Shown one piece after another: positions 2,895 through 24,830 of a DNA stretch of 24,830 bases (the stretch's first letter is position 1; every line of letters begins with the position of its first letter). Source of the DNA: Nitrosarchaeum sp. (lineage in GTDB: Archaea > Thermoproteota > Nitrososphaeria > Nitrososphaerales > Nitrosopumilaceae); contig JAGXTE010000001.1 of the NCBI GenBank assembly GCA_018334095.1, positions 30,001-54,830 of the forward strand, read 5' to 3'. Position numbers and translations under genes: made by a program. The notes under the pieces were generated by a model. The model did not search any database. It worked only from the letters and a program-made list of their open reading frames with translations, and was not told where the DNA came from.

Positions 2895-3124
2895 GAATTT
2901 CCTTGAATATACCAATCAAGGTAAGGCATCATGGTCTTGCAGAACTTTTTCTTTTCAGCCTCATCAGTCATGCCTGAAACACCATTAATCTTTCCTTTTA
3001 GGTAATCCTGAGTAATTTCACTTTTAAGGTATGGCTGAATCTGGTTTAGAATTGCTATTATTTTATCAGATGTGACATTATCAAAATCATTTAAAATTTC
3101 TTTGACTTGATCTTGCAACGTCAT
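2891..3124 (-). CDS. hypothetical protein
   Basis: 77-aa ORF that fits tightly between its neighbours. No family recognised. Confidence 0.4.
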   Translation of the reverse strand: MTLQDQVKEILNDFDNVTSDKIIAILNQIQPYLKSEITQDYLKGKINGVSGMTDEAEKKKFCKTMMPYLDWYIQGNS

Positions 3125-3155
3125 TATTCAAACTAGAATAAATCCCATTATTACT

Positions 3156-3404
3156 TTATTGTTTGTTTTCCAAAATTAGGTCATTGTCATCCCAAGTTAG
3201 ACGGAATTTTCCAACAACTCGGAATAGTTGTATTCTACCACCTTTTTTGAACTTTAGTTTGTATGAGTTCTGAGACGTATCATAAATCTCTAAAGAAACA
3301 CCGTCTGTAATTGTTTCAAATATTACAGGGTTGCTTGATAGTTCTTTCCACTCTGTTGGTTCAAAATCAATATAGAATTTAGTGTAAAGAAGTCCCATGT
3401 TCAT
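3156..3404 (-). CDS. hypothetical protein
   Basis: 82-aa ORF. No family recognised. Confidence 0.4.
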   Translation of the reverse strand: MNMGLLYTKFYIDFEPTEWKELSSNPVIFETITDGVSLEIYDTSQNSYKLKFKKGGRIQLFRVVGKFRLTWDDNDLILENKQ

Positions 3405-3442
3405 AGACGGTTAAACATTCCCGAATAAAAACGAGTCTCAAG

Positions 3443-4027
3443 TCATTCTACTTCTTGATAGCTTTTAGGCATACTTGAATAAAGATAGCTCATCACTGTT
3501 GGAAAAATTGTATCGTGATCCTTATCATTTTGAATTATGACAAATACCTGATGGATTAATTGCTGGATTTCCAGATGTTCATCACGGTATAGAGTTTTTT
3601 TTGGATTTTTGTTTGAATCCAAAAGTGTAAACCCGTTGTCAGTTTGCAGCAGATTTTTCAGTACAGAATTTGTGATTTTGATCTTTTCATTTACATCTTT
3701 GTGGCGGTAATCTTCCTCTAGTTTTTTTATGTAATTTTTAAGATTGTGAAATGCAGTGTTTGTTATTCTTTCAACATGCTGCTGAAATTTTGTAGCATAG
3801 TTTGATGTTGGAACATAAAATTTCATGTTTGCTTTTTTCTCTACAAAGATTATCTCTTTGTCAATAAGCGAATCCCTAGTCTTCTCAAATGTTGTTTTTG
3901 CCATATACTCGGGAACAATCTTCTTTAAGAGAGCATTGTGATGCATCTCAGGGTTGTTTTTTATGCATTCAAAAATTATTCTTTCACGCTCATAGAGTTC
4001 TGATGTAGGCTCAATATGGGTTATCAT
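3443..4027 (-). CDS. putative winged-helix DNA-binding protein
   Basis: The N-terminal segment IIFECIKNNPEMHHNALLKKI...TFEKTRDSLIDKEIIFVEKK resembles a wHTH, and the C-terminus is helical. The assignment is by pattern only. Confidence 0.5.
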   Translation of the reverse strand: MITHIEPTSELYERERIIFECIKNNPEMHHNALLKKIVPEYMAKTTFEKTRDSLIDKEIIFVEKKANMKFYVPTSNYATKFQQHVERITNTAFHNLKNYIKKLEEDYRHKDVNEKIKITNSVLKNLLQTDNGFTLLDSNKNPKKTLYRDEHLEIQQLIHQVFVIIQNDKDHDTIFPTVMSYLYSSMPKSYQEVE

Positions 4028-4113
4028 TACTAGGTCGACCTAGTATATACAGGTCATATATTTATCATTATCTACTATTCAGTTAGGCATCACGAAGAGA
4101 ATGTGCTAATTAA

Positions 4114-4497
4114 TCAGACAAGAGAATCTTGAATCTTCTTTGTGTCAGTGAATTGTCTGAATTGGATGATTTTGTGGTCTTTAATTTGGTAAACGTGTGA
4201 AAAGGGAACATCAAACTTTCTACCTTTTTTTGAGATGCCTTGGTATCTTCCAATGACTATAACATGATCATCTGCATCCAAAAACTGGTCAGTAACTGCA
4301 TGAAACTCTGAAAAATTTTTCAGCATGCCAGGAAAATAATCTCCAAAGATTGCATTTAATCCGACATATCTTCCACTGTTTGGCATTCCATCCATTGTTA
4401 TCCACTCTGTTTTTTCATCGCAAAATAAAGGATATTTTTCAGTGTCTTTATTTTTAAAAGCGTCATAGAATTTTTTTATCAGCTCAATGTTTGACAT
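4114..4497 (-). CDS. SnoaL/NTF2-like fold protein
   Basis: N-terminal IELIKKFYDAFKNKD... and a ~127-aa length are typical of SnoaL-like/ketosteroid-isomerase-like domains. Confidence 0.6.
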   Translation of the reverse strand: MSNIELIKKFYDAFKNKDTEKYPLFCDEKTEWITMDGMPNSGRYVGLNAIFGDYFPGMLKNFSEFHAVTDQFLDADDHVIVIGRYQGISKKGRKFDVPFSHVYQIKDHKIIQFRQFTDTKKIQDSLV

Positions 4498-4591
4498 GTT
4501 GTTTTAGTTCATCATATTTTCATAAACGTTACGAATACAATGTTAATTTATTTATAAAAAAGATATATGTATAAAATTTAAAATATGTTTT

Positions 4592-5020
4592 GTGAAAGAT
4601 ATACCGTTTGACTTTCATGGTGCAAAGTTTACAATCAAGGTTTTGACTTCTGAGACAAATGGTATCTATACCATTTTAGATGTGATTCATCCTCCAAATT
4701 TAGGACCGGCATTGCACATGCATCCCAAAGGTCCTGAAACCTTTTACATAGTTGACGGAGAGTATGAATTCATTTTAGATGATAAAACAATAATGGCAGA
4801 AACTGGAGATATGATTTTTGTTCCAAAGGGAAAGCCACACAGGTTTGTAGTAGGAAAAAATGGCGGTCATGCACTTGTAATTAGTCCGCCAGATCTAGAG
4901 TTTTACTTTTACAAAGTTAGCGAATTACTTGCAAAAGGAGTCGTATCATATGAGACTGAATCAGACATTGGAAAGAAATATGGTCAGATTTTCTTGGATG
5001 GTACAAAGCACTGGGAATAA
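4592..5020 (+). CDS. cupin domain protein
   Basis: Cupin motifs are HMHPKGPETFYIVDGEYEF and GDMIFVPKGKPHRF. The start is GTG. Confidence 0.8.
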   Translation: MKDIPFDFHGAKFTIKVLTSETNGIYTILDVIHPPNLGPALHMHPKGPETFYIVDGEYEFILDDKTIMAETGDMIFVPKGKPHRFVVGKNGGHALVISPPDLEFYFYKVSELLAKGVVSYETESDIGKKYGQIFLDGTKHWE

Positions 5021-5024
5021 TCAA

Positions 5025-5252
5025 TTATTTTTTGGTGTTTTTTGAATCTCTTTCTGAAATTAAAAATTCTAGTTTTTTATGCAAATCATCCAAGTTACGT
5101 TCCAATCTTCTTAGAGTTTCAATCAGGGCATCAGATTTAGACTCTTCAAGTTCTTTGGTTACAGATTCCTTATGTTTCTCAAGCTTCTTGATTCTTTGCT
5201 CTGTCTCAAAAACGGCAGTTTGTAACGCCTCAAAATCATTTTCAAAACCCAA
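5025..5252 (-). CDS. small coiled-coil protein (hypothetical)
   Basis: 75-aa charged helical ORF. The overlapping + strand ORF 5032-5283 has S/L-rich low-complexity composition and is taken as the spurious partner. Confidence 0.4.
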   Translation of the reverse strand: MGFENDFEALQTAVFETEQRIKKLEKHKESVTKELEESKSDALIETLRRLERNLDDLHKKLEFLISERDSKNTKK

Positions 5253-10334: not shown

Positions 10335-10629
10335 CTATTTCCGATTCGGATTGATTGAGCATAAAAAATTTACGGAATTTAAATTGTTACAGTGGATATT
10401 AAAAAAGTTTTAGATGTTGACATTAGTTTGCTATGGCATTTCCATTAAACAATTTTTTAATTTACATAAAGTATGTTCAAGATTAACTGAAAATACGAGA
10501 TAATTAAAGTTGATCTTGTGTATATTATAAAATATTACAGCAATCACGATATGCATCGATTAGAAACTATTTTTGATTCTGACTTTTCATAAATCCTTAA
10601 TTTCTATTAGATGTCATAAATAAATTTGA

Positions 10630-11068: not shown

Positions 11069-11119
11069 ATCATTGTGTACCGTCTATTTTCTTGCCTAAA
11101 GGAGGGGCTTTGCCTTTTT
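11069..11119. repeat. degenerate copy of the casposon right TIR (footprint of an earlier insertion)
   Basis: atcattgtgtaccgtctattttcttgcctaaaggaggggctttgccttttt aligns with the right TIR atcatctagttacctgtctaaatccacacctaaaaagggggcattctattttt at roughly two-thirds identity. Shared blocks are atcat, acc-gtcta, cctaaa, ggggc and ttttt. It abuts the left TSD copy in the same way the real right TIR abuts the right copy. Confidence 0.6.
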
Positions 11120-11132
11120 ATTCTCTATCGAT
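11118..11132. repeat. target-site duplication, left copy (ttattctctatcgat)
   Basis: Exact 15-bp match to 22831-22845. Identity extends to 18 bp (11115-11132 = 22828-22845) because both are preceded by ttt, so the TSD/TIR boundary is ambiguous and the TSD is 13-15 bp. Confidence 0.85.
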
Positions 11133-11185
11133 AAAAATAGAATGCCCCTCTTTTGGGCGTGATTTTAGACATGTAACTAGATGAT
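11133..11185. repeat. casposon left terminal inverted repeat
   Basis: The reverse complement of aaaaatagaatgcccctcttttgggcgtgattttagacatgtaactagatgat matches 22780-22832 at 46/53 positions. Confidence 0.85.
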
Positions 11186-11244: not shown

Positions 11245-11814
11245 TTGTTATCTGAAATTTATTTTAAAGAATTTCTGAAAAACCCATTTTTTTGGTGGAG
11301 TGCTTTCATAGGAATTATAACAACTTGGATTTCATTTGAACCATTTTTTAGAATTGTTGAAGCAATTTTGTTAGAACAACTGTATGTTCCAATCTTGTAT
11401 GGATGTGTAGGATTATCTCTCTATCTAATGATTTATCCAATAAAGAGCAGATTGAGAAACCTGAAACTTCAGAAAGAAACTAAAAAAGAATTTCTTGTTT
11501 ATACATTTATGATAGTAGCAATAATTACAAATACCGTATACTTTTCATCAGATCCAGCTTTTATGTTAACAAAGGCACAGAGTCAAATTGTATCTGATAA
11601 AGTAATTTTAGAAGAAGTGGGGGACCTAAAATTATGGGCAGAATATCTTGTGTTGCCTTTTCTTTATGCAATCATGTTAGCACAGAGTAGAAAACTCTTG
11701 TATGGAAATGAAGAAATGAAATTTGACAATATCGAAAGTAGCTGGAAAATATCTATTATCATTACAATACTTGTAGGCGGTGCATATCTTTTGTTTAAAT
11801 TAGTGTCTGGATGA
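11245..11814 (+). CDS. polytopic membrane protein (hypothetical), immediately upstream of cas1
   Basis: 189 aa with a TTG start and four to five hydrophobic helices. Its stop at 11812-11814 lies 1 nt before the Cas1 TTG start, so co-transcription is likely. Confidence 0.5.
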   Translation: MLSEIYFKEFLKNPFFWWSAFIGIITTWISFEPFFRIVEAILLEQLYVPILYGCVGLSLYLMIYPIKSRLRNLKLQKETKKEFLVYTFMIVAIITNTVYFSSDPAFMLTKAQSQIVSDKVILEEVGDLKLWAEYLVLPFLYAIMLAQSRKLLYGNEEMKFDNIESSWKISIIITILVGGAYLLFKLVSG

Positions 11815-11815
11815 T

Positions 11816-12886
11816 TTGACGCTTAAAGGCCATTCAAACCATTACAACATAAAATTCCTCAAAGGATACGGTCATTCCATATCTGTTAAAGATTCAAAGA
11901 TAATCCTCAAAGATTGTCATGATCCTTTCACTCCTCCAAACATTGAATCATGGTACATCAAAAGTATGCCATATGAAAAAATTGTTTTGCAAGGAAAAGG
12001 ATACATCTCGACTGATGCTTTAGCCTTACTTTCTGAGAATAATCGAAATGTCATTTTATTAGATAATCATGGAAAACCTGTAACCTATCTAAATCCGGTA
12101 ATGGAGTCTCTAACTGCAACTAGAAACAGAATTGCTCAATACGATACATTTCGTAATCCGGAGAAATGCCAATTTTTACAGAGACAAATTGTAAAGTCAA
12201 AACTAGAATCTCAAATTAAATTCCTCAAACTAACTGAGCGAGAGGAAATAAAAGAAGCCATAGAAAAACTAGAAACTCATTTGACTAATCTAGATCATTT
12301 CACTTCAATTAGTAACGAATCAAAGACATCTCATATCTACTTTAGAGCATTTGCAAAAATAATTCCAGAGAGATATGAGTTTCATTCTAGAAACCCATCG
12401 TATGTAGGATTGGCAAAAAACAAAGCTACTGATATTATCAATGCATTACTAAACTATGGTTATGCAGTACTAGGTGGAGAAATTTCCAAGTTTATCAACG
12501 GATTTGGGCTTGATGCATACTATGGATTTTATCATAAATCTCACACTGGTTTTCAGCCTCTAGTTTATGACATGATGGAACCATTTAGGTGGCTAGTCGA
12601 TTATACCGTATTTCGAATTGCAAACATCAAAGACCACAAGCAGAGAATTAGGCTTGATGAATTTACTCATACTAGAGACGGAATTATAGTAATGGAGTAT
12701 AATTTGATCAGGAAATTTCTAGAGTTACTTGAAAGAACATTCCAGTCTGAAAGAAGATATGGGTTTAGACATGGTGCAAAAACAAAAGATGGGTTGAAAA
12801 ATGTTCAAGAGATTACGATTGCAAAGATTACAGTTCAAAATTTAGTAGAGTATTGTTTAGGAAAACAAAAAGACTTTAGAATCTAA
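11816..12886 (+). CDS. cas1: Cas1-family integrase (casposase)
   Basis: Cas1 signature blocks are NESKTSHIYF (E168), INALLNYGYAVL, DAYYGFYH (H240) and LVYDMMEPFRWLVD (D252/E255). The N-terminal beta-rich region (YNIKFLKGYGHSISVKDSKIILKD) is typical of Cas1. The start is TTG. Confidence 0.9.
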   Translation: MTLKGHSNHYNIKFLKGYGHSISVKDSKIILKDCHDPFTPPNIESWYIKSMPYEKIVLQGKGYISTDALALLSENNRNVILLDNHGKPVTYLNPVMESLTATRNRIAQYDTFRNPEKCQFLQRQIVKSKLESQIKFLKLTEREEIKEAIEKLETHLTNLDHFTSISNESKTSHIYFRAFAKIIPERYEFHSRNPSYVGLAKNKATDIINALLNYGYAVLGGEISKFINGFGLDAYYGFYHKSHTGFQPLVYDMMEPFRWLVDYTVFRIANIKDHKQRIRLDEFTHTRDGIIVMEYNLIRKFLELLERTFQSERRYGFRHGAKTKDGLKNVQEITIAKITVQNLVEYCLGKQKDFRI

Positions 12887-14059: not shown

Positions 14060-14797
14060 TTAGTGTTTTTGTTTATATTTTTTTATTGGTTTTATAAAAT
14101 CATCAACAAACATTTCTAACATTTTTGGATCAAGTCGAAAGGATTCAGCAAATAATCGTGCAAACACCAACCCTCCAAGTAAATCAAACGAGGATGACCC
14201 TTTATCACTTAGTGAATCTAAAACTTGTTTCTTATATTTAGTAATTTGTTTAGTCATAGTAGTAAGTTTACGCTTACCGGAAACCCTACTGACCATCATC
14301 GACTGCATTTCATATATTGAAATCCAATGCAAAAACTTCATTACTTCTTCTACTTTTGTTGAATCATCTGCATCAGAAGATATTGTTTTCAAAATTCCTG
14401 TGGTGCCTATTTTGATATTTTCCATTGTTTCTATAAACTCCTCAACTTGTTCATCAGACATAGTTGTAATTTTTGAATTTATAGTGTAAATTGTGTTGTT
14501 TCTTGCAATGACGTGTTTTATCACGATTTTATTTTGGACTAATTCATCTAATATTTCTCGAAAAATTCGTTCAGAACAAACCTTTTTGTCAATCACGATT
14601 ATTCTTTCTAATTCTCCATATCGAATGCTGTCGGTATTTTTTAACACCGTATTGATTTCATCTCGTGCCTGATTTCGTATTGTACCGTATTGCATATACT
14701 GTACCGTATAATTTCTACCGTTATAACTATTGCAATAACGTAAAGTTGGCATGAAATGTGGGAAGATTGGTAGAACATCTACCAAAAAACAAACCAA
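14060..14797 (-). CDS. putative winged-helix transcription regulator
   Basis: The wHTH-like segment is INTVLKNTDSIRYGELERIIVIDKKVCSERIFREILDELVQNKIVIKHVIARNNTIYTI. The real start is probably ATG 14695 (MQYGTIRNQ...), because the longer ORF would overlap the divergent gene at 14751. Confidence 0.55.
   Translation of the reverse strand: MVCFLVDVLPIFPHFMPTLRYCNSYNGRNYTVQYMQYGTIRNQARDEINTVLKNTDSIRYGELERIIVIDKKVCSERIFREILDELVQNKIVIKHVIARNNTIYTINSKITTMSDEQVEEFIETMENIKIGTTGILKTISSDADDSTKVEEVMKFLHWISIYEMQSMMVSRVSGKRKLTTMTKQITKYKKQVLDSLSDKGSSSFDLLGGLVFARLFAESFRLDPKMLEMFVDDFIKPIKKYKQKH
14646..14725. promoter_or_regulatory. cluster of accgtat direct repeats at a divergent promoter (operator-like)
   Basis: accgtatt at 14646 and 14684, accgtata at 14703, accgttata at 14717. 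A perfect 10-mer tgtaccgtat occurs at 14681-14690 and 14700-14709, 19 bp apart. The two copies fall in different reading frames of the minus-strand ORF, so this is a DNA-level repeat. Confidence 0.45.
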
Positions 14798-14996
14798 ACT
14801 CAGTCATTCAGATGCAGTTTCAACTGATTTTGGAGTAAGGAAGATCAGCAATCAAAATTTTTCCAAAGTGATTGCACTTCCAAAAACTGCAATAGAAAAT
14901 CTTGGTGGAGATTCAACTGAAATGAAAGTTGAACTAATACAAGAAAATGGAGAAAAATTCATCAAACTTTCTCCAATTAGAGGTGATAATTTTTGA
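14751..14996 (+). CDS. AbrB/SpoVT (MazE-like) DNA-binding domain protein
   Basis: VRKISNQNFSKVIALPKTAIENLGGDSTEMKVELIQENGEKFIKLSPI resembles the SpoVT-AbrB looped-hinge-helix domain. Confidence 0.55.
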   Translation: MKCGKIGRTSTKKQTKLSHSDAVSTDFGVRKISNQNFSKVIALPKTAIENLGGDSTEMKVELIQENGEKFIKLSPIRGDNF

Positions 14997-15328
14997 GTAC
15001 AACGCAAATACCATACATTTGCTGGGGAGAATACAAATCCAAAGACCAAAACAACCCAGATAGATTAGATATCGAAGTAACTAGTTTAGAGCAGTTTGAA
15101 AGTGAACTAACAACAAATGTTCATGTCAAACAAAAGATTCAAGGAGAATGTCAAGAAAGAATTCTACCGTTAAAGTCTCATGAATCGCCAAACAATTCAT
15201 TGTTAAAACAATGGAATGATCTAGTCAAAAGAAAACGAATCATAGTCGGAAGCAAACTGGTGATTCACACATATCTTGGAATTTCAAAGCATGGTAGAAC
15301 AATTCGAAAATTCCATGTAGAGGTTTAA
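14993..15328 (+). CDS. hypothetical protein
   Basis: 111-aa ORF with a TTG start. It overlaps the previous stop by 4 nt, which suggests operon-style coupling. Confidence 0.45.
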   Translation: MSTTQIPYICWGEYKSKDQNNPDRLDIEVTSLEQFESELTTNVHVKQKIQGECQERILPLKSHESPNNSLLKQWNDLVKRKRIIVGSKLVIHTYLGISKHGRTIRKFHVEV

Positions 15329-15347
15329 TCCTCTTTTTTCTTTTGAT

Positions 15348-15656
15348 ATGAGCGATAAAGATAAACTTCTAGAACAACTTGATGCCTTAAAATTATTTCC
15401 AAACAATAAACATGTAAAGGAACTACGAAAACAAATCAAATCAAAATTAGATAAATTGAAAAATAAAAAACCTAAAGAAAAAATACAAAAACAAACCAGA
15501 GCAGGCAAGTTAAGAAGATACCACAACTATATTAGACAAATTAGAAACAACTTTCCCAATCTATCATACAACCAGATTAGAAGTCAACTATCTCAAAGAA
15601 GACAAGGAAAACAGGTATCAATTCCTGATGTGATATGGCAGAATCCATCCCCGTAA
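15348..15656 (+). CDS. small highly basic protein (hypothetical; terminal-protein or DNA-binding candidate)
   Basis: 102 aa, K/R-rich, overlapping the pPolB start by 22 nt. Confidence 0.5.
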   Translation: MSDKDKLLEQLDALKLFPNNKHVKELRKQIKSKLDKLKNKKPKEKIQKQTRAGKLRRYHNYIRQIRNNFPNLSYNQIRSQLSQRRQGKQVSIPDVIWQNPSP

Positions 15657-17419
15657 CTGATTACAAGAATCTGGCCAAATTACGCACAAAAAGGCCACAA
15701 AACAGAGATTCTGCACAATCAAAGATTCGCAAAATCAATGCACTTGATACAGAAACCTACAATGGGGATATCTTTCTAATAGCAGACTCTGATGGTCTAT
15801 ATCTTGATGATATAACTTCAGATAATGTAATTCACTTTTTATTTTCAAAAAAATATCAAAATGCTTGGAATTTTTTTTATAATTTGCAATATGACGCTGA
15901 AGTGATACTAAAGTTATTGGGAAATGAACTATTTCGATACAAACAAACTGGAAAATTAGAATTCCTATACAAACAATTCAAAATAGAGTACATTCCATCA
16001 AAATTACTAAGAATAAAAAAAGGCCACCACAGCGTATTATTTTTTGATATTGCTCAGTTTTACACAAAATCATTAGTTGATGCATATGAGCAAAACATTG
16101 GAGAATTACCCAAGACATATTTGGAGATAAAAGAAAAACGCTCTCACTTTACAAAGCGATTTTACAATCACAACAAGAAAAAAATTAGAAGTTACTGTAT
16201 TACTGATTGTATTCTTACAAAGAAACTATCTGAGCACTGGATTGCACTGTTTAATCAAGCATTTTCGTTTTATCCTGCAAAATGGTCTTCATCAGGATAC
16301 TTGGCAGAAAAAGTACTAATCAACAATGGAATATTTTTTCCAAAATTTGATTCTATACCATACCAAATTCAGGATTTAGCGTTTAGATCATACTTTGGGG
16401 GAAGATTTGAAATGATAAAGCGGGGATTTATTGGCAAAGCGTACCTTTATGATATTAATTCAGCATATCCACATGCCATATCTCAACTCCCTGATCTAAA
16501 TGATGGTAGATGGATTAAACGAAAATCCATTTATGATAAAGCAAAACTTGGTTTCTTTAAGATTCTAGCAAACATCCCAGATGATAAAATCATCCCACCA
16601 TTTGCCTTTAGAGCAAATCATAACATTGTATTTCCATCTGGAAAATTCATTACATATTGCACATTGCCTGAACTTTTAGCCTGCAATGAGCCTAGTTTTT
16701 ACAAAATTTTGGAAGGATACCAGTTTGTGCCAAATTCTAATGTCTTACCATACAAAGATTTCATAGAAAAATTATATCAAAAACGTCTAAAACTAAAACA
16801 AGAAAACAATCCATTACAGCAACCAATCAAAATTATCTTAAATTCCATTTATGGCAAAACAGGACAAAAAATAAACAGAATAATTGGAAATTTATTTAAT
16901 CCCGTAATATTTGCAAGCATCACAGGACATACTAGAGCACAACTATACCAATTCATTATAAAAAACAATCTAGAAAAAAACACTATAGCATTTGCCACAG
17001 ATTCTATCTGCATAACAAAAAAACTTGACATCAACTCTACTAAACTTGGAGAGTTTTCATTTGATGGAAAAGCAAATGATGTTTTTTATTTACAAAATGG
17101 ATTTTATAGATTCAATGGAATGTGGAAGCAACGTGGATTTGGTAAACTAGGATCTAGAGAAATAGAACATCTAGATACTAAAGAAAAAAATGGCAAGCTA
17201 ATTGCAAAGATGCAAGTTTTACGAAACCCTAGATTACGAAGCTCAATAATTCAAAACAATATTAAAAATATTGGAAATATCTCTACAATTAGTAGAGAGA
17301 TTAATCTTAATGCTGATAGGAAAAGACTGTGGCTTGATACAATTACTAACATAAATCAAAAATCAGCTAATGAGTCAGTACCGATTTCTTTGAATCATTT
17401 TACTAAAGAGCAAATATGA
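15635..17419 (+). CDS. polB: protein-primed family B DNA polymerase (pPolB)
   Basis: Motifs are ExoI ALDTETY, ExoII NLQYDAEVI, ExoIII YCITDCILT, Pol A YLYDINSAYPHA, Pol B KIILNSIYGKTGQ and Pol C FATDSICI. The short 594-aa size is typical of protein-primed PolBs. Confidence 0.9.
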   Translation: MAESIPVTDYKNLAKLRTKRPQNRDSAQSKIRKINALDTETYNGDIFLIADSDGLYLDDITSDNVIHFLFSKKYQNAWNFFYNLQYDAEVILKLLGNELFRYKQTGKLEFLYKQFKIEYIPSKLLRIKKGHHSVLFFDIAQFYTKSLVDAYEQNIGELPKTYLEIKEKRSHFTKRFYNHNKKKIRSYCITDCILTKKLSEHWIALFNQAFSFYPAKWSSSGYLAEKVLINNGIFFPKFDSIPYQIQDLAFRSYFGGRFEMIKRGFIGKAYLYDINSAYPHAISQLPDLNDGRWIKRKSIYDKAKLGFFKILANIPDDKIIPPFAFRANHNIVFPSGKFITYCTLPELLACNEPSFYKILEGYQFVPNSNVLPYKDFIEKLYQKRLKLKQENNPLQQPIKIILNSIYGKTGQKINRIIGNLFNPVIFASITGHTRAQLYQFIIKNNLEKNTIAFATDSICITKKLDINSTKLGEFSFDGKANDVFYLQNGFYRFNGMWKQRGFGKLGSREIEHLDTKEKNGKLIAKMQVLRNPRLRSSIIQNNIKNIGNISTISREINLNADRKRLWLDTITNINQKSANESVPISLNHFTKEQI

Positions 17420-17634: not shown

Positions 17635-18489
17635 TTATTGTAATGAAAAACCACACTTATTGCAAAATGAAGAATCTGTTGGATTAACATTTTTACATTG
17701 TGTGCAGATGGTTGTAAATTTATGCCCACATTTATTACAAAACTTTGCATCAATTGGATTAAAATTATTGCATGATGTACACTTGATTTCTTGCTCGCGT
17801 TTCTGTTTTTCATTATCTTGTTTTCTTAGTTTATCACTCCATTCTTTTTGGGTTTTGATTTGATATTTTACCAGTTTAGCCAATCCGTTCGGATCTGGTA
17901 CAGCATAAAACGTAAAAACAATTTCTCCTTCTGCCATAATATTTACATCGCCAAACGTTTGACTTTCACCAGTACTAAAACTACCTGAACTTCCTACAAA
18001 TGTTCCACTAGCACCAATTCCTGCAAATGTTCCCTCACGTTGAGATTCAGATATTCTTTTTTGATTATTGACTATAACATCAATGTTTTCAGATAATGCA
18101 TACATTGACATCTGATGTTCTTTTAAATCATAAAAATAACATCTGTATTCTGTTAAAGCGTCATACGCTCTTAGTGTTTTATTGACTAACCCTTCTTCTT
18201 TTTTGCGATACCATAAAACTTGTTCATTTTTACATTTTATTGGAAGAAATGGATTTACCCAAAAAGCTTCAATTCTTTTTGTGTCATCATTTTGAAATAA
18301 TACTGGATACTCGGATGTGATATTTTTTTCTTCTAATAATTGTCGACTTTTTTCGATAGATAGAGCCATGTCTCTCTTTGATTTTTCTGGAACCTCTGAA
18401 GCTGGAAGTAAAAATATATCTTCAAGTTCAAATTTTTCTTCATTTTTTTTAACTTCTATCTGCTTTTCTTTTTTACCAAATAATCCCAT
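17635..18489 (-). CDS. double-zinc-ribbon protein with uncharacterised N-terminal domain
   Basis: The C-terminus CTSCNNFNPIDAKFCNKCGHKFTTICTQCKNVNPTDSSFCNKCG is two tandem CxxC..CxxC ribbons. The N-terminal ~220 aa are unassigned. Confidence 0.65.
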   Translation of the reverse strand: MGLFGKKEKQIEVKKNEEKFELEDIFLLPASEVPEKSKRDMALSIEKSRQLLEEKNITSEYPVLFQNDDTKRIEAFWVNPFLPIKCKNEQVLWYRKKEEGLVNKTLRAYDALTEYRCYFYDLKEHQMSMYALSENIDVIVNNQKRISESQREGTFAGIGASGTFVGSSGSFSTGESQTFGDVNIMAEGEIVFTFYAVPDPNGLAKLVKYQIKTQKEWSDKLRKQDNEKQKREQEIKCTSCNNFNPIDAKFCNKCGHKFTTICTQCKNVNPTDSSFCNKCGFSLQ

Positions 18490-18607
18490 AAATTTGAGAA
18501 CATATACAAATTCTTAAGGATTTATTCATTTGTTATATTCATACTTCATTCGTACAAATTTTATGAATTTACGATAAACTAAAATTCATAATTTTTTATG
18601 AAACCAT

Positions 18608-19420
18608 ATGGGTTGGAAAAAACTTTTAGGTGATATTAAAGAAAAATCAGAAAAATTTGTTGAAGAAAAAAAGAAAGAGCGCAATTTAAGACGAATAGAA
18701 CAACAGGAACAAGCAGAACAAAGAGCAGAGTATGAGAATACTGTTAACAAATTACTGGATAAATTTGAAATTCCAGATCTTGATGAATTTTTAATGAAAT
18801 ATCTTAACAATAAACCAGAACCTAAAATAGAAAAAGACCCAGATATAGGAAAAATAACTAAGATACGACCAGGTAGACGAGAATATCTTGATTTTGTTTG
18901 GAGTAATTTTAATGAAAAAGATATCACATATGATCAACTAAAGAATTTTGCTTTAAAAAAGAAAATTATTACTCCAAGTTTCTTTGGAAACGAATCAGAT
19001 GACACTTATGAAAAAAGTGACTTTGAATCAATTATTAATGCAATTCGAGTTGGATTTGAACCTGAAAAAATTACAGATGAAGAACATCTTGAAGCACAAT
19101 TAATGATATTTTTGAAAGCAAAATTTCCAGACAGAAAAATAAGAAGGCAAGTTACAATTCAAGGAAATGACCGACTCGATATTTTAATTGATGATAAATA
19201 TGCCTTTGAACTTAAAGTCCCAAAACAAAGAACAGATTTAAGAAATCTAGGTGCTCAATTAGAAGAATACAAAGAAATGTATCCAAACGTATGTGGATTG
19301 ATCTTTGAAGATATCAATGAAGGAAATCTTTCACAAGATATCATGGATTATGTTGATAAATACAAAAAAAATTATGGGATATCTACAATAGTTTTAGGCG
19401 GTACCAAACGATATTCATAA
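18608..19420 (+). CDS. PD-(D/E)xK (RecB-like) nuclease-fold protein with charged N-terminal region
   Basis: Ordered motifs are EEHLEAQL (E), RLDILID (D), FELKV (ExK) and AQLEEY (QxxxY), the RecB-family/restriction-endonuclease-like pattern. There is no Cas4-type Cys cluster. Confidence 0.55.
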   Translation: MGWKKLLGDIKEKSEKFVEEKKKERNLRRIEQQEQAEQRAEYENTVNKLLDKFEIPDLDEFLMKYLNNKPEPKIEKDPDIGKITKIRPGRREYLDFVWSNFNEKDITYDQLKNFALKKKIITPSFFGNESDDTYEKSDFESIINAIRVGFEPEKITDEEHLEAQLMIFLKAKFPDRKIRRQVTIQGNDRLDILIDDKYAFELKVPKQRTDLRNLGAQLEEYKEMYPNVCGLIFEDINEGNLSQDIMDYVDKYKKNYGISTIVLGGTKRYS

Positions 19421-19485
19421 TAATACAACATCAGTTATTCTTTGAGAATTATTCTTGGTAAATTATAAGGATTTATGAAATTAAG

Positions 19486-19513
19486 ATTGTGTTTTTTTAA
19501 TCAAAAACACAAT
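19486..19513. promoter_or_regulatory. perfect 11-bp stem hairpin/palindrome (terminator or operator)
   Basis: attgtgttttt (19486-19496), a ttaatc loop, then aaaaacacaat (19503-19513), followed by acttttt. It lies 66 nt after the stop of 18608-19420 and 30 nt before the ATG at 19544. Confidence 0.5.
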
Positions 19514-19543
19514 ACTTTTTCAATAGAATCCCAATAATAGAGC

Positions 19544-20248
19544 ATGGCCATAATCTATGGCATTTCAGAGGCTACAAAAGAATTCCTAAAGAAATTACCA
19601 AAGGAAATCAAATCCCTTGAAGATATTGAAAAAATACATCAAAAATTATCCCAAGAGTATGATGAACTAGAAAACAAGGGATTAATTGCTAAATTTAGTC
19701 GTTGGAATAAAAAAAGACAAATAAAAAAAATTGAAGAAAATACTGACAGTAAAGAACACCGAGGTGCACGAGGTGAAGTTCTAGCATTAGAGAAACTATC
19801 AGAACTACCTGATGATTATCACATATTCTGTGGAGTAAACAAGGTACTCAAAGATTATGTCACCTATCGAAGAAAACGAAATCTAAAGTCAGCCCAGATG
19901 GACTTTGTCGTAGTATCAAAAAGGGGTGTATCAGTAATTGAGGTAAAAAACTGGAGTTCACATTATTACAATAATTACTATGGATTGCCACCACATGAAC
20001 AAGTAGACAGAGCAGGTCGTGTCTTGTGGATATCGCTAAAGTCTTCTTGGTTTGCACCAAAAGATCCACCAATTTCTAGTGTATTACTAGCAATTCAAGG
20101 AAATATCAACTATGATGATAATTATGGATATGTCATTGTAAAGAATCTAAACAATATCAATTACTATTTGCAAAATAGAGAAATACAGTTTTCTGAAAAA
20201 GAAGTATCTAGATTAATTGGTAGAGTCAAAGGAGACATAACAACATGA
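19544..20248 (+). CDS. NERD (nuclease-related domain) protein
   Basis: GARGEVLALEKLSELPDDYHIF...AQMDFVVVSKRGVSVIEVKNWS matches the NERD pattern G..GE...L...D.vvv...gv.viEvKn. Confidence 0.7.
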   Translation: MAIIYGISEATKEFLKKLPKEIKSLEDIEKIHQKLSQEYDELENKGLIAKFSRWNKKRQIKKIEENTDSKEHRGARGEVLALEKLSELPDDYHIFCGVNKVLKDYVTYRRKRNLKSAQMDFVVVSKRGVSVIEVKNWSSHYYNNYYGLPPHEQVDRAGRVLWISLKSSWFAPKDPPISSVLLAIQGNINYDDNYGYVIVKNLNNINYYLQNREIQFSEKEVSRLIGRVKGDITT

Positions 20249-20349
20249 TTGTTTTATAGTACATATAATTATTAACAAAGATATTTTGCATGTTAGATTA
20301 AATCATGTAAAAAATTAGAATTTTCAAACATATCAAATAATCAGTAATT

Positions 20350-21309
20350 TTGGTTAGAAAAATCATGTCTTCATTTCTTCTAAAAAAGAAATCTAAAAAA
20401 TCATTTTTAGAAGGAATTCAAATTTTAGAATATTCTACAAGAGAAAATTATCGGTCAGCACTTAAACAATTTGAAACATTTTGTAATTTTTATTATAATA
20501 AAACTATTCAATATATAATAGATGAAATAAAATCATTAAAACAAGAACAAAAAGATGAAGCGTTTCTTGGAATGTTGCAAGAATTTGTTAATTGGATGAA
20601 AAAAACAACATTGGCAAATACTACAATTCAAAAATACTTTCAAATTATTATTTATTATTTTAGCTATCATGGGATTAGAGCACATCCTATAGATCTACGA
20701 CAAAATATCAAACTCCCAAAAAAGTTTAAAGAAAAACTTCATTCATTAACCAAAGAAGAAATAATTCAATTATTCAAATTCACTCCTCAATCAAGACAAA
20801 TGTTGTATCTAGTATTGATTGGATCTGGTATGAGAATTAGAGAAACTGTAGCATTACGAAAAAAAGATTTTGATTTAGACTATCCAAAAAGAATCAAAAT
20901 AGAAATACCGGCTCAATTTACAAAGACAAAAACTGCACATACAACATATGTTTCAAAAGAGGCCGAATCTCTCCTAAAACCACACTTAGAATCCATAAAA
21001 AATAACGATTTAGTATTTGCAACAAATTCTATTCCATACCATGCATCTATGACTGAAATAGGGGCTTTTGCCAGATATAGAGAAAAAGCAGGATTGACTC
21101 GAATTTATGAATCAACTAAACGACATCATATATCACTTCATTCTTTTAGATCGTATTTTTTTATTCGTGCTAGACGAATACATGATACAGATATTGCTCA
21201 TGCAATGATAGGTCATTCTACGTATCTTGATATGTATGACAGAAAAGAAGACGATGAAAAATTAGACTTGTTTCTAGAAGTTGAAAATGAACTAAAAATT
21301 TGCGGATAA
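20350..21309 (+). CDS. tyrosine recombinase / phage-type integrase
   Basis: Catalytic pattern is GMRIRETVALRKKDF (R), SLHSFRSYF (HxxR) and IGHSTYLDMYDR (H...Y), with an N-terminal SAM-like core-binding region. The start is TTG 20350 or ATG 20365. Confidence 0.8.
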   Translation: MVRKIMSSFLLKKKSKKSFLEGIQILEYSTRENYRSALKQFETFCNFYYNKTIQYIIDEIKSLKQEQKDEAFLGMLQEFVNWMKKTTLANTTIQKYFQIIIYYFSYHGIRAHPIDLRQNIKLPKKFKEKLHSLTKEEIIQLFKFTPQSRQMLYLVLIGSGMRIRETVALRKKDFDLDYPKRIKIEIPAQFTKTKTAHTTYVSKEAESLLKPHLESIKNNDLVFATNSIPYHASMTEIGAFARYREKAGLTRIYESTKRHHISLHSFRSYFFIRARRIHDTDIAHAMIGHSTYLDMYDRKEDDEKLDLFLEVENELKICG

Positions 21310-21359
21310 GAACAATTGGTAGGATATTGTTTTTATTCATGTTTACTATGTGAGCCATA

Positions 21360-22778
21360 ATGTCAATGCTATTGTTTGGGGCAGGTGCGTCTAGACCGTT
21401 TGGGATTCCAACAATGCAAGAAATGGTAGATGATTTTGAAAGGGAATTATCTCAATCCACAATTCATTTTACATTTTACCAAGATATCAAAAAATCATTA
21501 GTAGAGCAATATGGACCAAATAAAACAGATATTGAATCAATTCTATCTGTACTCCAAGGGATTGGAGAAAATGTCACTCCAAGTGATTTAGGTCATTTCA
21601 CATATTATTATATTTCAAAAAATTGTTCAAAAAAGAGTTTTTCTGAAGAGGATATAACTAAAGCAAAAGAAATTACAATTAAACTAAAAGATTACATAAA
21701 AACAAAATGCCAGGTAAATTCAAAAGATCTTACAAGTATTTATTCAAAAACATATTTGCCATTATTCCAAAATTTAGCAGGAACAAAATTTCTCTATCAT
21801 GGAAATTTTGAACTTGCCACTGAATGGAAAAGTTTTACAACAAATTATGATGACATTTTTGAAAGATTTTGGAGTAAATTTCAGGAACCCAATAGTCATT
21901 TTGAGAGACAGGGAACTTCAAATAACTATATTTTCAATTCAAATATAACTTTAGACAATCAATCATTATCGAAACTTCATGGTTCACTTGATTGGACAAG
22001 AATTAAGGATACAGATCAAATATTTCGTTCTGCACAAACTGGATTTAATACTCATGAAACAGAAGGAGATGTCATGTTATATCCAATTCAACAAAAAGAT
22101 CTATACCTTCATCCATGGTTTACGTTATTTCAAGACTTCAAAAAAAGTTTAGAAAAATTCAATCAATGGTATATAATTGGTTATGCGTTTAACGATGAAT
22201 TTATTTTAAATGTTATAAAAGAAGGTTTAACAAAAAAATCAAAAACAATGATTGTAATTAATCCTAATGCTGAAGTAATCAGAAATAAATTTCCAGATGT
22301 GCTTAGAAAACAAATTATTGCTTTACCCTATAAATTTGGAGATCAGTATTTTGTCAATAATTTTATTGAATTTCAAAGGAAAGTCAGAAACATAGAATTA
22401 TCTATCCAAACAAACGCTCAATGTTTTAAAATTGAATTCCCATTTAAAGTACATACAGAATATGTGCATAAAATTGAACATGGGTCTTGCGCTAATGCCA
22501 CTGTATTGCCTAACAACCATCAAGTTTTTGAATACAATACAGAAAAAGGTTCAGAAATTTCAATAACATTAAATGCAGATTTTGACTTTGATTATACACG
22601 TATTGAAAATTTGGATTTTACATTTATTTCAAATTCTAAAACTCCTGTTAAATGTACTATAAAAAACCAAAAACGAATTATTGACACTTGTACTCTAAAT
22701 GATTGGACACGTTTAAAAACTGATGAAAATTTTTTGATTAGAGTTAGAAGTGTTAGCTCACGTAATTTTCTTATCTGA
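21360..22778 (+). CDS. SIR2-like (SIR2_2 family) putative NADase with uncharacterised ~130-aa C-terminal domain
   Basis: Motifs are LLFGAGASRPFGIPTMQEMV, FTTNYDDIFE, LSKLHGSLDW and YIIGYAFNDEFI, as in defence-associated SIR2 domains. The stop lies 1 nt before the right TIR. Confidence 0.7.
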   Translation: MSMLLFGAGASRPFGIPTMQEMVDDFERELSQSTIHFTFYQDIKKSLVEQYGPNKTDIESILSVLQGIGENVTPSDLGHFTYYYISKNCSKKSFSEEDITKAKEITIKLKDYIKTKCQVNSKDLTSIYSKTYLPLFQNLAGTKFLYHGNFELATEWKSFTTNYDDIFERFWSKFQEPNSHFERQGTSNNYIFNSNITLDNQSLSKLHGSLDWTRIKDTDQIFRSAQTGFNTHETEGDVMLYPIQQKDLYLHPWFTLFQDFKKSLEKFNQWYIIGYAFNDEFILNVIKEGLTKKSKTMIVINPNAEVIRNKFPDVLRKQIIALPYKFGDQYFVNNFIEFQRKVRNIELSIQTNAQCFKIEFPFKVHTEYVHKIEHGSCANATVLPNNHQVFEYNTEKGSEISITLNADFDFDYTRIENLDFTFISNSKTPVKCTIKNQKRIIDTCTLNDWTRLKTDENFLIRVRSVSSRNFLI

Positions 22779-22779
22779 A

Positions 22780-22832
22780 ATCATCTAGTTACCTGTCTAA
22801 ATCCACACCTAAAAAGGGGGCATTCTATTTTT
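22780..22832. repeat. casposon right terminal inverted repeat
   Basis: atcatctagttacctgtctaaatccacacctaaaaagggggcattctattttt is the inverted partner of 11133-11185 (46/53). Its last 2 nt are shared with the TSD as drawn. Confidence 0.85.
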
Positions 22833-22845
22833 ATTCTCTATCGAT
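22831..22845. repeat. target-site duplication, right copy = last 4 codons plus stop of EF-2
   Basis: The reverse complement of ttattctctatcgat is ATC GAT AGA GAA TAA, which reads I D R E stop and matches the EF-2 C-terminus ...EEYIDRE. Confidence 0.85.
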
Positions 22846-24830
22846 GTATTCTTCGATTCCAGGAGGTGTTGGTGCCAATCCTTTTCTCTTTCTGATTTCT
22901 GCAATTGCAGTTGCTGCAATAGATTTTGGCAGTTCAGTCCATGCCTTAAAGGATGTATTCCATGTTGCACGTCCTGCTGTTTGTCCTCTCATTGCTTCAG
23001 ATAGTGTAAATGTTTCAGATGCTGGAATTTCACCGACAATAATACTTGCAGCTCCTTTTTGTTGCATGTCAAGCACTTTGCCACGTTTGCCAGAAAGAAC
23101 GGTAGCTACGTTTCCTACCAAGTCAGTTGGAACTCGGACCTCAATTGCAAGCATTGGCTCCAAGATTGTAGTTCCTGCAGTTAGTAACGCTCCCATGCAT
23201 GCACGTCTAGATGCCGGTCCCAGTTGTGAAAGACCACGGTGTGCAGTATCCTCGTGAGGTACAAAGTGAGTAAAGATGAATTTGCAGTCCCTCATCTGCT
23301 CTTTGCAGAGTGGGCCTTCTTTCATTACTTCCTCAAATCCAGAGTTGATAGAGTCAGTTGACTCTTGAATAAATTGAACACCTTTTGTTCCGTTGATCAT
23401 TACGTTTCCACGTGGGTCTAGTTTCATGATTCTCTTAATTGTATCAGTATCCCATCCAGCGCCCTTTAGAAGGTCAGCTACAACTTTTTTGTCTTTCATG
23501 TCGCTGATTTCACCAGTTCTTAGCATGTGTGCGATTGCTGGCTCCAATGGCTCTACTTTCATGAAAATCTTGTTGTGTCTGTTTGGAGATTTTGACATGA
23601 TTGGCTCACATGTTCCTTTGACGGTTTCTCTGTAATTGATAAGAGGTTCAGATGTTATGATTTCTACTTTGGCGTCTTGAATTCTATGTGTTGCAACATC
23701 AAGGTGCAACACACCCATTCCAGCTACTAGTGTTTCGCCAGATTCTTCATCGATTTTTACTACAAGGTTAGGATCTTCAATTGTTAGTTGTTTGAGGACC
23801 TCGACAAGTTTTGGCAAGTCTTTTGGATGTTTTGGTTCTATTGCAACTTGCACGACAGGTTCTGATACATATTTGACTCCTTCAAACATTGGAATTCCTT
23901 TGACAGATGAAATTGTATTTCCTGCTCTAGCTTCAGTTAATCCTAATAATGCTGGAATGTTTCCTGCACCAAGCTCACCGACTTGTTCTCTTTGGTTTCC
24001 CATGAAAAAGTTTACAGATTGAACTCTTCCCTCTCTTTTTGCATCGATAATGTTTATTGTTTGTCCGTCCTTTATTGTTCCAGAGAATAATCTACCAATT
24101 GCAACAGGCCCTGCTGCAGGATCTAAGACCATGTTGACGACCATCATGATTGTTGGTCCGTCATCACTGCATGCCAAGAGTGCTTTACCAATATCAGATT
24201 CAAGGTCACCTTTCCAAATTTGAGGAATTCTGTACTTTTGAGCAACGTGTGGTGGTGGAACGTGTTTTACTACCATTCCCAACACTGCATCAGCCAAAGG
24301 AGCGCGTGCTACCAAATCTTCTACTTTTTCATTTTTGTAAGCATCAATGACATCTTTGAATGTAATGCCTTTTTCTTTCATGATATCTACGTTAAATGCC
24401 CATTTGTCTTTGGCAGAACCAAATGTGACGCTGGCATCTTGGATAGATACTTTCCATTTGTCTTTGTATTCAGGTTCAGCATAAGTGTCAACTAGTTGGT
24501 TAAAGCTAGACACTACACCTGCAAGTGTCTCTTGCATTTTTTCTGGTGTCAGACGTAATTCTTTGATTAGTCTGTCTACTTTGTTGATAAATAAAACTGG
24601 TCTTACTCTTTCTTCAAGGGCCATTCTTGTTACAGTCTCTGTCTGGGTCATGATTCCCTCGACTGCATCACATACTACAGTTGCGCCATCGATTGCCCTA
24701 AGACTTCGAATTACCCTTCCACTGAAATCTACGTGTCCGGGAGTATCAATCATGTTAATGACGAATTCTTTGTCTTTTTGTGTAAAGTGTAAAGTTACAT
24801 TTGCTTGGTAAATTGTAATTCCTCTTTCTT
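22831..24830 (-). CDS. fusA: translation elongation factor 2 (aEF-2), 5' end beyond window
   Basis: The track ORF starts at an internal Met, but the frame stays open upstream to the window edge (..ERGITIYQANVTLHFTQKDKEFVINMIDTPGHVDF..). It carries the G-domain DTPGH motif and the diphthamide-loop-like HEDTAHRGLSQ. Length and domain order are those of EF-2. Confidence 0.95.
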   Translation of the reverse strand, partial: ERGITIYQANVTLHFTQKDKEFVINMIDTPGHVDFSGRVIRSLRAIDGATVVCDAVEGIMTQTETVTRMALEERVRPVLFINKVDRLIKELRLTPEKMQETLAGVVSSFNQLVDTYAEPEYKDKWKVSIQDASVTFGSAKDKWAFNVDIMKEKGITFKDVIDAYKNEKVEDLVARAPLADAVLGMVVKHVPPPHVAQKYRIPQIWKGDLESDIGKALLACSDDGPTIMMVVNMVLDPAAGPVAIGRLFSGTIKDGQTINIIDAKREGRVQSVNFFMGNQREQVGELGAGNIPALLGLTEARAGNTISSVKGIPMFEGVKYVSEPVVQVAIEPKHPKDLPKLVEVLKQLTIEDPNLVVKIDEESGETLVAGMGVLHLDVATHRIQDAKVEIITSEPLINYRETVKGTCEPIMSKSPNRHNKIFMKVEPLEPAIAHMLRTGEISDMKDKKVVADLLKGAGWDTDTIKRIMKLDPRGNVMINGTKGVQFIQESTDSINSGFEEVMKEGPLCKEQMRDCKFIFTHFVPHEDTAHRGLSQLGPASRRACMGALLTAGTTILEPMLAIEVRVPTDLVGNVATVLSGKRGKVLDMQQKGAASIIVGEIPASETFTLSEAMRGQTAGRATWNTSFKAWTELPKSIAATAIAEIRKRKGLAPTPPGIEEYIDRE

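Follow-up and report, generated by a model that had tools for sequence, protein, structure and literature searches.

Casposons are mobile-element relatives of the CRISPR spacer-integration machinery. The closest described relatives of the element analysed here are NitNF5-C1 of Ca. Nitrosopumilus adriaticus NF5 and NitAR-C1 of Nitrosopumilus sp. AR, two family-1 casposons that encode Cas1, a protein-primed PolB (pPolB) and small genes, have inverted repeats and the terminal motif AAATAGAAT(G/C)CCCC, and are inserted at the 3' end of ef-2, a known preferred target of thaumarchaeal family-1 casposons (PMC6563490). The same build was found in the window, meaning the whole analysed stretch of 24,830 nucleotides from contig JAGXTE010000001.1 of a Nitrosarchaeum sp. 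assembly (GCA_018334095.1); the host is a Nitrosarchaeum-like ammonia-oxidising archaeon. The window contains an intact family-1 casposon of 11.7 kb, in which positions 17635-22778 form a variable accessory arm with genes for a double-zinc-ribbon protein, a PD-(D/E)xK nuclease, a NERD-domain nuclease, a tyrosine recombinase and a SIR2 protein. The arm, carried by a family-1 casposon at aEF-2, is probably a mosaic in which five single-gene cassettes were each acquired separately, and not one system.

Genes of several of these types have been reported in casposons before. In 2014, Krupovic et al. described Sir2-like genes in family-1 casposons, considered that they might be deacetylases without ruling out other activities, and knew of no casposon with a tyrosine recombinase; in NitAR-C1 the Sir2-like genes lie beyond polB, as here (PMC4046053). 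By 2019, NitNF5-C1 was known to encode a 236-aa NERD protein, nucleases of the OLD and HNH types and, at its end, a XerC integrase; HEPN and Cas4 genes (the latter as two homologs in NitNF5-C2) had been described in further casposons of family 1, as had tandem insertion at ef-2 (PMC6563490). The present element shares NERD and an integrase with NitNF5-C1 and additionally carries a SIR2-beta-sandwich protein, a DpnII/MboI-like nuclease and a zinc ribbon, and it is without OLD and HNH. An earlier note made from the sequence of the window had proposed that the arm is a candidate defence module and may be an undescribed combination; the latter suggestion is superseded by the reports of Sir2-like genes (PMC4046053) and of NERD with XerC (PMC6563490) in family-1 casposons. 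Among elements that act as carriers of defence genes, pipolins are likewise PolB elements whose core is conserved and whose variable arm holds exchanged defence-type genes, whereas the defence-gene density of 48 casposons annotated with PADLOC in 2024 was much lower than that of pipolins (PMC11551731). In the present arm, only one of the five cargo genes (SIR2) has a significant PADLOC match.

All five open reading frames (ORFs) of the arm lie exactly where the earlier note had placed them, intact and inside the cargo arm of the casposon. They are judged from their sequences to be real genes and not chance ORFs, because the four proteins for which homologs were searched have hundreds of conserved homologs each, the integrase has profile matches and relatives, and ORFs as long as these do not arise by chance in DNA of 30% G+C. 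The five domain calls were also borne out: the Pfam matches to DZR, NERD, Phage_integrase and SIR2_2 all exceed their gathering scores, and the PD-(D/E)xK call holds at the level of the family. Coordinates of the cargo genes and of the other features of the casposon are given in Table 1.

The cargo genes were followed through 26 SIR2-homolog loci from GTDB and four more chosen by identity, 61 family-1 casposon loci collected by pPolB alignment, and further loci with homologs of the PD-(D/E)xK and NERD genes; tblastn of all casposon proteins was run against 111 loci, henceforth referred to by number (L001 and so on). The casposon core genes were nearly universal in the loci tested. Among the 61 polB-anchored loci, NERD was present in L043 and L053 only and PD-(D/E)xK in L062 and L086 only, and the integrase, SIR2 and zinc-ribbon genes were present in none. 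The integrase and SIR2 genes recurred together only in L006, a pPolB element found through its SIR2 gene, and in the MCM-encoding integrated element L010. No homologs of NERD, PD-(D/E)xK or the zinc-ribbon protein were detected by tblastn in the SIR2-homolog loci of other elements, and no locus beyond L001, L031 and L032, which are copies of this same casposon, joins SIR2 with a NERD or PD-(D/E)xK gene. Outside these copies at most the integrase and SIR2 co-occur, so that the five genes cannot be kept as one module, and a single conserved multi-gene system was ruled out by the co-occurrence tests. What stands of the proposed defence module is its SIR2 protein, which is of a predicted antiviral NADase type; the genes do not travel together.

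Nucleotide comparisons indicated how two of the genes were exchanged. Over the NERD cassette (19466-20249, which takes in 78 bp before the gene), identity to L043 is 94% against 70% in polB, and over the PD-(D/E)xK cassette (18571-19419, with ~35 bp before the gene), identity to L062 and L035 is 79-81% against 65-67% in polB. Both homology blocks end at the stop codon. Because the two cassettes are more alike than polB and end at gene ends, NERD and PD-(D/E)xK appear to move as single genes. On the strength of these alignments, the arm reads as a mosaic of independently moving single-gene cassettes, and this evidence for cassette-wise exchange goes beyond published accounts.

Table 1 Features of the casposon and its insertion site, with the five cargo genes listed first (window coordinates).
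Feature	Position	Strand	Basis or remark
284-aa protein, central domain and C-terminal double zinc ribbon	17635..18489	-	Pfam DZR 1.2e-8, residues 237-280
270-aa stand-alone PD-(D/E)xK nuclease	18608..19420	+	Conserved motifs, family profile, model
234-aa NERD-domain nuclease	19544..20248	+	Pfam NERD 1.4e-11
319-aa tyrosine recombinase (XerA/XerC-like integrase)	20350..21309	+	Pfam Phage_integrase 1.3e-10
472-aa SIR2 protein	21360..22778	+	SIR2 domain 1 to ~335, beta-sandwich ~342-466
Left target-site duplication TTTTTATTCTCTATCGAT	11115..11132	.	Exact 18-bp match to 22828-22845
Left terminal inverted repeat	11131..11185	+	55 nt, 87% complementary to 22780-22834
Predicted membrane protein, gene before cas1	11245..11814		
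Casposase (Cas1 homolog)	11816..12886	+	Pfam Cas_Cas1 3.5e-49
Three small conserved family-1 genes upstream of polB (81, 111, 102 aa)	14751..15656	+	tblastn
Protein-primed PolB	15635..17419	+	Pfam DNA_pol_B_2 4.8e-23
Right terminal inverted repeat	22780..22834	-	Pairs with 11131-11185; sequence read
Right target-site duplication	22828..22845	.	Last aEF-2 codons and stop codon
aEF-2 gene, insertion target	22831..24830	-	EF-2-like translation; cut by window end

The SIR2 protein matched Pfam SIR2_2 at 2.2e-7 (31.5 bits against a cut-off of 24.5), and its best profile was the argonaute-associated PADLOC model Aga_SIR2 (7.3e-25). In an alignment of 25 sequences, G7, A8, G9 and S11 of the GAGxS motif are nearly invariant, and N162 and D164 of TTNYD and H207 of KLHGS are invariant. 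An AlphaFold2 model (pLDDT 85.5, pTM 0.83) gave as top Foldseek matches the antiphage SIR2 of SIR2-HerA/Nezha (8sub, 8wld and 8j4u; 1e-9 to 5e-11, best 4.6e-11), followed by SPARSA 8jl0 (6e-6, TM 0.32) and by CobB deacetylases at 1.5e-4, which is 6-7 orders weaker than antiphage SIR2. Among 24 homologs, mean identity is 47.5% in the SIR2 domain and 12.6% in the C-terminal beta-sandwich, and such a conserved SIR2 domain with a hypervariable C-terminus is the pattern expected of an effector joined to a fast-evolving recognition domain. The homologs are 40-52% identical, ~480 aa long and solitary in variable Nitrosopumilales regions. Their neighbours are type I restriction-modification genes, a ParB_N/PRTase pair and a transposase in L002, another SIR2 fusion in L003 and ParE and DUF4145 genes in L004, and in L006 and L010 the gene lies beside the integrase of an integrated element. 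A 447-aa gene beside XerC in NitNF5-C1 was considered as a candidate SIR2 homolog; no homolog from N. adriaticus is among the 120 listed of 140.

The SIR2 proteins of three named systems, SIR2-HerA (Nezha), SPARSA SIR2-APAZ and ThsA, share with the present protein a SIR2_2-type Rossmann domain in which the GAGxS, N/D and H motifs occur. The adjacent HerA ATPase of SIR2-HerA is absent from the present locus, as are the short prokaryotic Argonaute (pAgo) and APAZ of SPARSA (there is no pAgo-sized ORF, and the C-terminus is a beta-sandwich of ~125 residues) and the ThsB (TIR) and SLOG components of Thoeris, for which none of the five cargo proteins gave a match. The ORF list and profile scans revealed no HerA, pAgo/APAZ, TIR or SLOG partner for SIR2 in the casposon or the window; no ORF lies between SIR2 and the right inverted repeat, and no ATPase is among the casposon ORFs. 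With no such partner and no giant DSR-type architecture, the protein is not a member of any named system. Unlike them, it is encoded by one 472-aa gene, carries an Ig-like beta-sandwich at its C-terminus and has solitary homologs; it is a relative that probably works like them.

A single-protein abortive-infection NADase is a credible reading of the SIR2 sequence and model. In this reading SIR2 would most likely act alone: once its beta-sandwich had sensed an infection cue, its SIR2 domain would degrade NAD+, so that the infected cell would be halted and its casposon-bearing sister cells spared. Kinship in structure, the domain assignment and the catalytic residues are as described above; NADase activity, a trigger and protection are what we infer. 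The predicted defence-type assignment is backed by structures solved since 2023 and in this respect goes beyond the casposon papers.

The second pPolB element with SIR2, L006 (8672-19637), ends in an integrase followed by SIR2, next to host purine-salvage genes. It also encodes a 489-aa Swt1-like HEPN protein and a 606-aa winged-helix protein, and an OLD-family ATPase/TOPRIM gene lies outside the element at 2961-5054. No cas1 was seen in L006, the contig of which ends ~0.9 kb beyond the locus, before the cas1 side. L006 might be a casposon with Cas1 replaced by the integrase; its only inverted-repeat-like motif is in a coding region and has two mismatches.

The PD-(D/E)xK protein begins with a long helix, continues with a small alpha/beta domain and has its restriction-endonuclease-like core at the C-terminus. 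A total of 221 homologs were found, and in an alignment of 30 sequences E153, D191, E201-x-K203 and Q217xxxY221 are invariant. The window protein is without a Pfam match; PF18742 (DpnII-MboI) was matched by 10 of the 30 homologs, which are 45-50% identical to it (best 1.1e-6), and the window protein matched phrog_28707 'nuclease' at 5e-5. In the AlphaFold model (pLDDT 86.7), an alpha-beta-beta-beta-alpha-beta core is present at 158-265 with the motif residues in the expected places and D...ExK on strands 2 and 3, and fold searches gave weak matches to Hef, Can2 and viral PD-(D/E)xK nucleases. PDB sequence searches with the PD-(D/E)xK family profile and with the zinc-ribbon protein returned spurious coiled-coil or zinc-ribbon matches only. 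As in the Cas4/RecB family, a PD-(D/E)xK core and a QxxxY motif are combined with a nearby Cas1-family integrase. In contrast to Cas4, the 270-aa protein has one invariant Cys (C229, 30 sequences), no four-Cys cluster and a long coiled-coil N-terminus, and its relatives match the DpnII-MboI family.

Casposons with the PD-(D/E)xK gene are the window element, L033/34, L035-38, L062 and L086. Its position varies: it abuts cas1 in L033, lies beside polB in L035 and L062, and lies between the two in L086. That a single PD-(D/E)xK family recurs across casposons goes beyond published accounts. The family also occurs in the non-casposon islands L100 and L101. In L100 (7381-13394), a homolog of 60% identity lies in a ~6-kb island of small genes with Mrr_cat and PaREP1; the island interrupts a lysW/lysX lysine-biosynthesis cluster and is followed by a second lysW/lysX pair.

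The NERD protein matched PF08378 with 45.3 bits (cut-off 22.1), and E78, D120 and E133-x-K135 are near-invariant (at least 98% conserved) in 122 sequences. Of its 640 homologs, the top 120 are 67-92% identical and almost without exception 234 aa in length. Copies were found in the casposons L043 (98% amino acid identity), L053 (86%) and L108-L111 (88%), and a NERD gene is also present in the published NitNF5-C1 (PMC6563490), giving at least five casposons with NERD (window, L043, L053, L108 and NitNF5-C1). The copies in mobile contexts, namely four casposons and the integrase/D5-primase element L106, form one cluster of at least 78% identity; a large cluster of 64 members is also present in the family. 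A search of IMG/VR viral contigs found no relatives of the PD-(D/E)xK or NERD genes. In L108-L111, NERD is the first gene and ends 1 nt before cas1 (for example at 10001-11723 of L108, an ef-2 casposon), in the slot that is occupied by the predicted membrane protein in the window. A 234-aa copy of 70% identity was found at a housekeeping locus, L102-L104 (8001-8705 in L102), seen on 11 contigs, where it is flanked by deoxyhypusine synthase on one side and threonyl-tRNA synthetase on the other, amid ribosomal protein genes. The housekeeping copy and the cas1-adjacent copy pull different ways, and the status of NERD is ambiguous.

For the recombinase, Phage_integrase gave 41.7 bits (cut-off 27.1), NCBIfam recomb_XerA_Arch 1.4e-16 (below the curated cut-off) and phrog_1 integrase 2.6e-22. 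The catalytic set (R, K, HxxR, H and Y) lines up with that of four other thaumarchaeal integrases. Homolog searches were run for the other four cargo proteins, and the integrase assignment rests on these profiles and on relatives in L006, L010 and L106. A profile built from five thaumarchaeal integrases detected integrases in 2 of 29 SIR2 loci, and the D5-primase element L106 combines NERD with an integrase of 35% identity. The integrase-SIR2 pair points outward in the present element; in L006 and NitNF5-C1, by contrast, an inward-pointing integrase occupies the outermost position. The recombinase probably marks recombination between a casposon and an integrase-type element, which would be an import route for cargo such as SIR2, and it may add a second integration or resolution activity. 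The description of the five genes as unrelated to transposition is doubtful: it is inaccurate for the integrase, itself a mobility enzyme whose catalytic residues are intact, and NERD and PD-(D/E)xK are among the most recurrent accessory genes of family 1, NERD lying directly upstream of cas1 in one case.

The zinc-ribbon protein (MBS3925139.1, Nitrosarchaeum sp., at NCBI) has a central domain at residues ~70-215 that recurs in 140 representatives at E<1e-10 in a full-library search, usually with the DZR tail. The ~230 residues before DZR had no matches other than zinc-ribbon fragments in Pfam, PADLOC, NCBIfam or PHROGs, and the gene was absent by tblastn from all other casposon loci and SIR2 loci tested. 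A tandem 27-nt repeat of 78% identity at 17980-18033 in this gene encodes a Gly/Ser-rich stretch, GTFAGIGASGTFVGSSGSF.

The cargo of other family-1 casposons was surveyed with Pfam and PADLOC on 141 non-core ORFs from 23 loci, some of which are open-ended and include a few host genes. AbiV-type HEPN (HEPN_AbiV), KAP NTPase (QatA/PifA-like) and NERD were each found three times, and a type II methyltransferase, HEC-05, mad3/mad8-like proteins and DUF4238 were also found; SIR2 was found in none of the 141. This single-gene cargo agrees with the literature, in which HEPN, OLD and KAP genes are known from family-1 casposons (PMC4046053, PMC6563490). Clustering placed NERD (four loci) and PD-(D/E)xK (three loci, and two outside the clustered set) among the most recurrent accessory families. 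The position just before cas1 is variable: different casposons carry genes for unrelated proteins there, such as a GNAT acetyltransferase in L033. Stand-alone nucleases with intact sites, NERD and the DpnII/MboI-like PD-(D/E)xK protein appear to circulate as cassettes among casposons and thaumarchaeal integrated elements. Most likely both would cut foreign or competing DNA, in defence or in inter-element competition; alternatively, they might process the element's own DNA.

Several explanations other than a mosaic were weighed. That the five genes form one new multi-component anti-virus system, with sensors and with nuclease and NADase effectors, would fit their adjacency, the location of four of the five on one strand, and the occurrence of SIR2, NERD and PD-(D/E)xK domains in known defence systems, the SIR2 call being strong. 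This is nevertheless extremely unlikely: no conserved co-occurrence was seen in the 26 SIR2 loci, the 61 casposon loci or the extra NERD and PD-(D/E)xK loci, each gene has its own upstream spacer of 50-123 bp, two of the genes move alone, and SIR2 homologs are solitary in chromosomal islands. SIR2 might instead be a protein deacetylase acting on host chromatin (Alba) or on casposon proteins, a possibility raised in 2014 for casposon Sir2-like genes (PMC4046053) and consistent with the SIR2 fold, the conserved catalytic His and the presence of CobB among the fold matches. We regard it as very unlikely, given that the best profiles and structures are those of antiphage SIR2 (with the margin over CobB stated above), that the Pfam match is to SIR2_2 and not to the classical sirtuin family, and that the hypervariable C-terminus and the island and mobile contexts fit a conflict gene.

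The two nucleases and the right end of the arm allow further readings. To our knowledge, no dedicated nuclease is known for family-1 casposons; HNH in family-2 casposons and Cas4 in CRISPR adaptation are analogues for one. NERD and PD-(D/E)xK could be interchangeable casposon nucleases for excision, end processing or replication, with SIR2 alone as defence, and roles of this kind were suggested for casposon nucleases by Krupovic in 2019 (PMC6563490). Both families are among the most recurrent accessory ones, PD-(D/E)xK abuts cas1 in L033, and NERD precedes cas1 by 1 nt in L108-L111; yet each is found in a minority of casposons (~2-5 of ~25 reasonably complete loci), their positions are not fixed, the pre-cas1 slot holds unrelated genes elsewhere, and both families occur outside casposons (L100, L101, L102 and L106), all of which makes this reading unlikely. 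A narrower version, by analogy with Cas4 beside Cas1, is that NERD and the RecB-like PD-(D/E)xK protein are interchangeable partners of the casposase that would excise the element or trim its ends; the 1-nt gap between NERD and cas1 and the recurrence of both nucleases leave room for it, and we consider it quite improbable. If true, it would mean that a partnership of Cas1 with a PD-(D/E)xK nuclease predates CRISPR. Finally, the right end (integrase and SIR2, perhaps with NERD) may be an inserted or fused tyrosine-recombinase element, or a remnant of one, and the casposon a chimera. The intact integrase, the integrase-SIR2 pairs of L006 and of the MCM element L010, NERD with the related integrase in L106, and NERD with a terminal XerC in NitNF5-C1 all point this way, whereas att direct repeats are lacking, there is no composition break within the arm, and the block ends 1 nt before the right inverted repeat. 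Such a chimera is possible, if on the less probable side, and it is compatible with a mosaic arm.

The preferred reading, a mosaic arm with a defence-type SIR2 protein, has a number of points against it. The SIR2 protein scored 30.9 bits against the cut-off of 500 for the NCBIfam equivalog SIR2_antiphage (NF042942), and by this profile it is classed as a relative and not a member; the solved structures closest to it belong to proteins that require HerA as a partner, and HerA is lacking in the present element. The earlier note had called for a PADLOC-type scan, and this matched SIR2 (Aga_SIR2) and gave no significant match for PD-(D/E)xK, NERD or the zinc-ribbon protein. The position of NERD against cas1 in L108-L111 could mean a function for the element itself; as the pre-cas1 slot is variable across casposons, the functional meaning of this adjacency is weaker. 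Around the housekeeping NERD gene of L102 there is no mobile-element gene within 8 kb, no tRNA and no G+C break, which is an unusual setting for a defence gene; the earlier note had held that conserved housekeeping homologs at fixed loci would speak against a defence module, and for NERD this is partly the case. Around the integrase-SIR2 pair or the whole arm, a search for att-like direct repeats gave chance-level short repeats only, and the import route is accordingly one that we infer. The genomic contexts examined amount to a handful per family.

The cargo shows how casposons pay their way in the host. Family-1 casposons appear to exchange accessory genes singly, the break points falling at gene ends, and accessory genes are shared between casposons and the integrase-type elements of the same archaea. 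Two leads emerge: a compact single-gene SIR2-beta-sandwich family that is widespread in Nitrosopumilales, and two nuclease families that recur in casposons otherwise without a known nuclease. Current views are not overturned, and the individual gene types had already been reported in casposons.

The remainder of the element has the features of a family-1 casposon, namely a Cas1-family casposase, pPolB behind small conserved genes, and inverted repeats with a target duplication. It is a clean, apparently intact example, with a perfect target duplication, all ORFs open and all catalytic residues present, and it was also encountered in a JGI metagenome contig, a Logan assembly and an NCBI Nitrosarchaeum sp. 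metagenome-assembled genome. The 18-bp direct repeat TTTTTATTCTCTATCGAT covers the aEF-2 3' end with its stop codon (0.13 matches expected by chance), and the aEF-2 ORF terminates with ...IDRE and the stop at the right duplication. GTP_EFTU/EFG domains were identified in the corresponding gene of L031, L033 and L035. The terminal motif AAATAGAATGCCCC of the left inverted repeat is common to other family-1 casposons, and the conserved motif given at the outset (also written AAATAGAATSCCCC) marks the ends of many of the 61 casposons.

Among the core genes, the casposase is 39-70% identical to Cas1 of other casposon loci, and polB is 44-79% identical across nearly all polB-anchored loci (27% in the marginal locus L099). 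The three small genes, which are the counterpart of the 'three small genes' of Krupovic 2014 (PMC4046053), had tblastn matches in nearly all of the 61 loci. A 245-aa gene at 14060-14797 (- strand), between cas1 and the small genes, is the most recurrent non-core family, with homologs in 6 of 24 casposon loci and without a Pfam match. The pPolB frame is broken into two ORFs in L039 (9615-11396) and L087 (5943-7736), which are probably inactivated elements or assembly frameshifts. A bacterial promoter and terminator scan was uninformative for an archaeon.

Possible traces of further insertions were noted. In the window, the 33 bp to the left of the left duplication (11082-11114) resemble the inner right inverted repeat (20 of 33 identical, with a GGGGC core), and the likeness reaches 75% over 51 nt once the duplication is counted. 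By its sequence, this segment appears to be what is left of the right end of an earlier casposon at this ef-2 site, which would imply a former tandem insertion like that of NitNF5-C1/C2. A third, inverted match to the target duplication (15 of 18, three mismatches) lies at 10350-10367 (- strand), upstream of an MgtC-like gene; it was treated as a probable chance match at the expectation given above and not as a genuine copy of the duplication, and its sequence could otherwise mark an older rearranged insertion. In two metagenome contigs, L040 (11127/11145) and L048 (4546/4564), right-end and left-end family-1 motifs lie 18 bp apart, which points to two casposons in tandem at one target.

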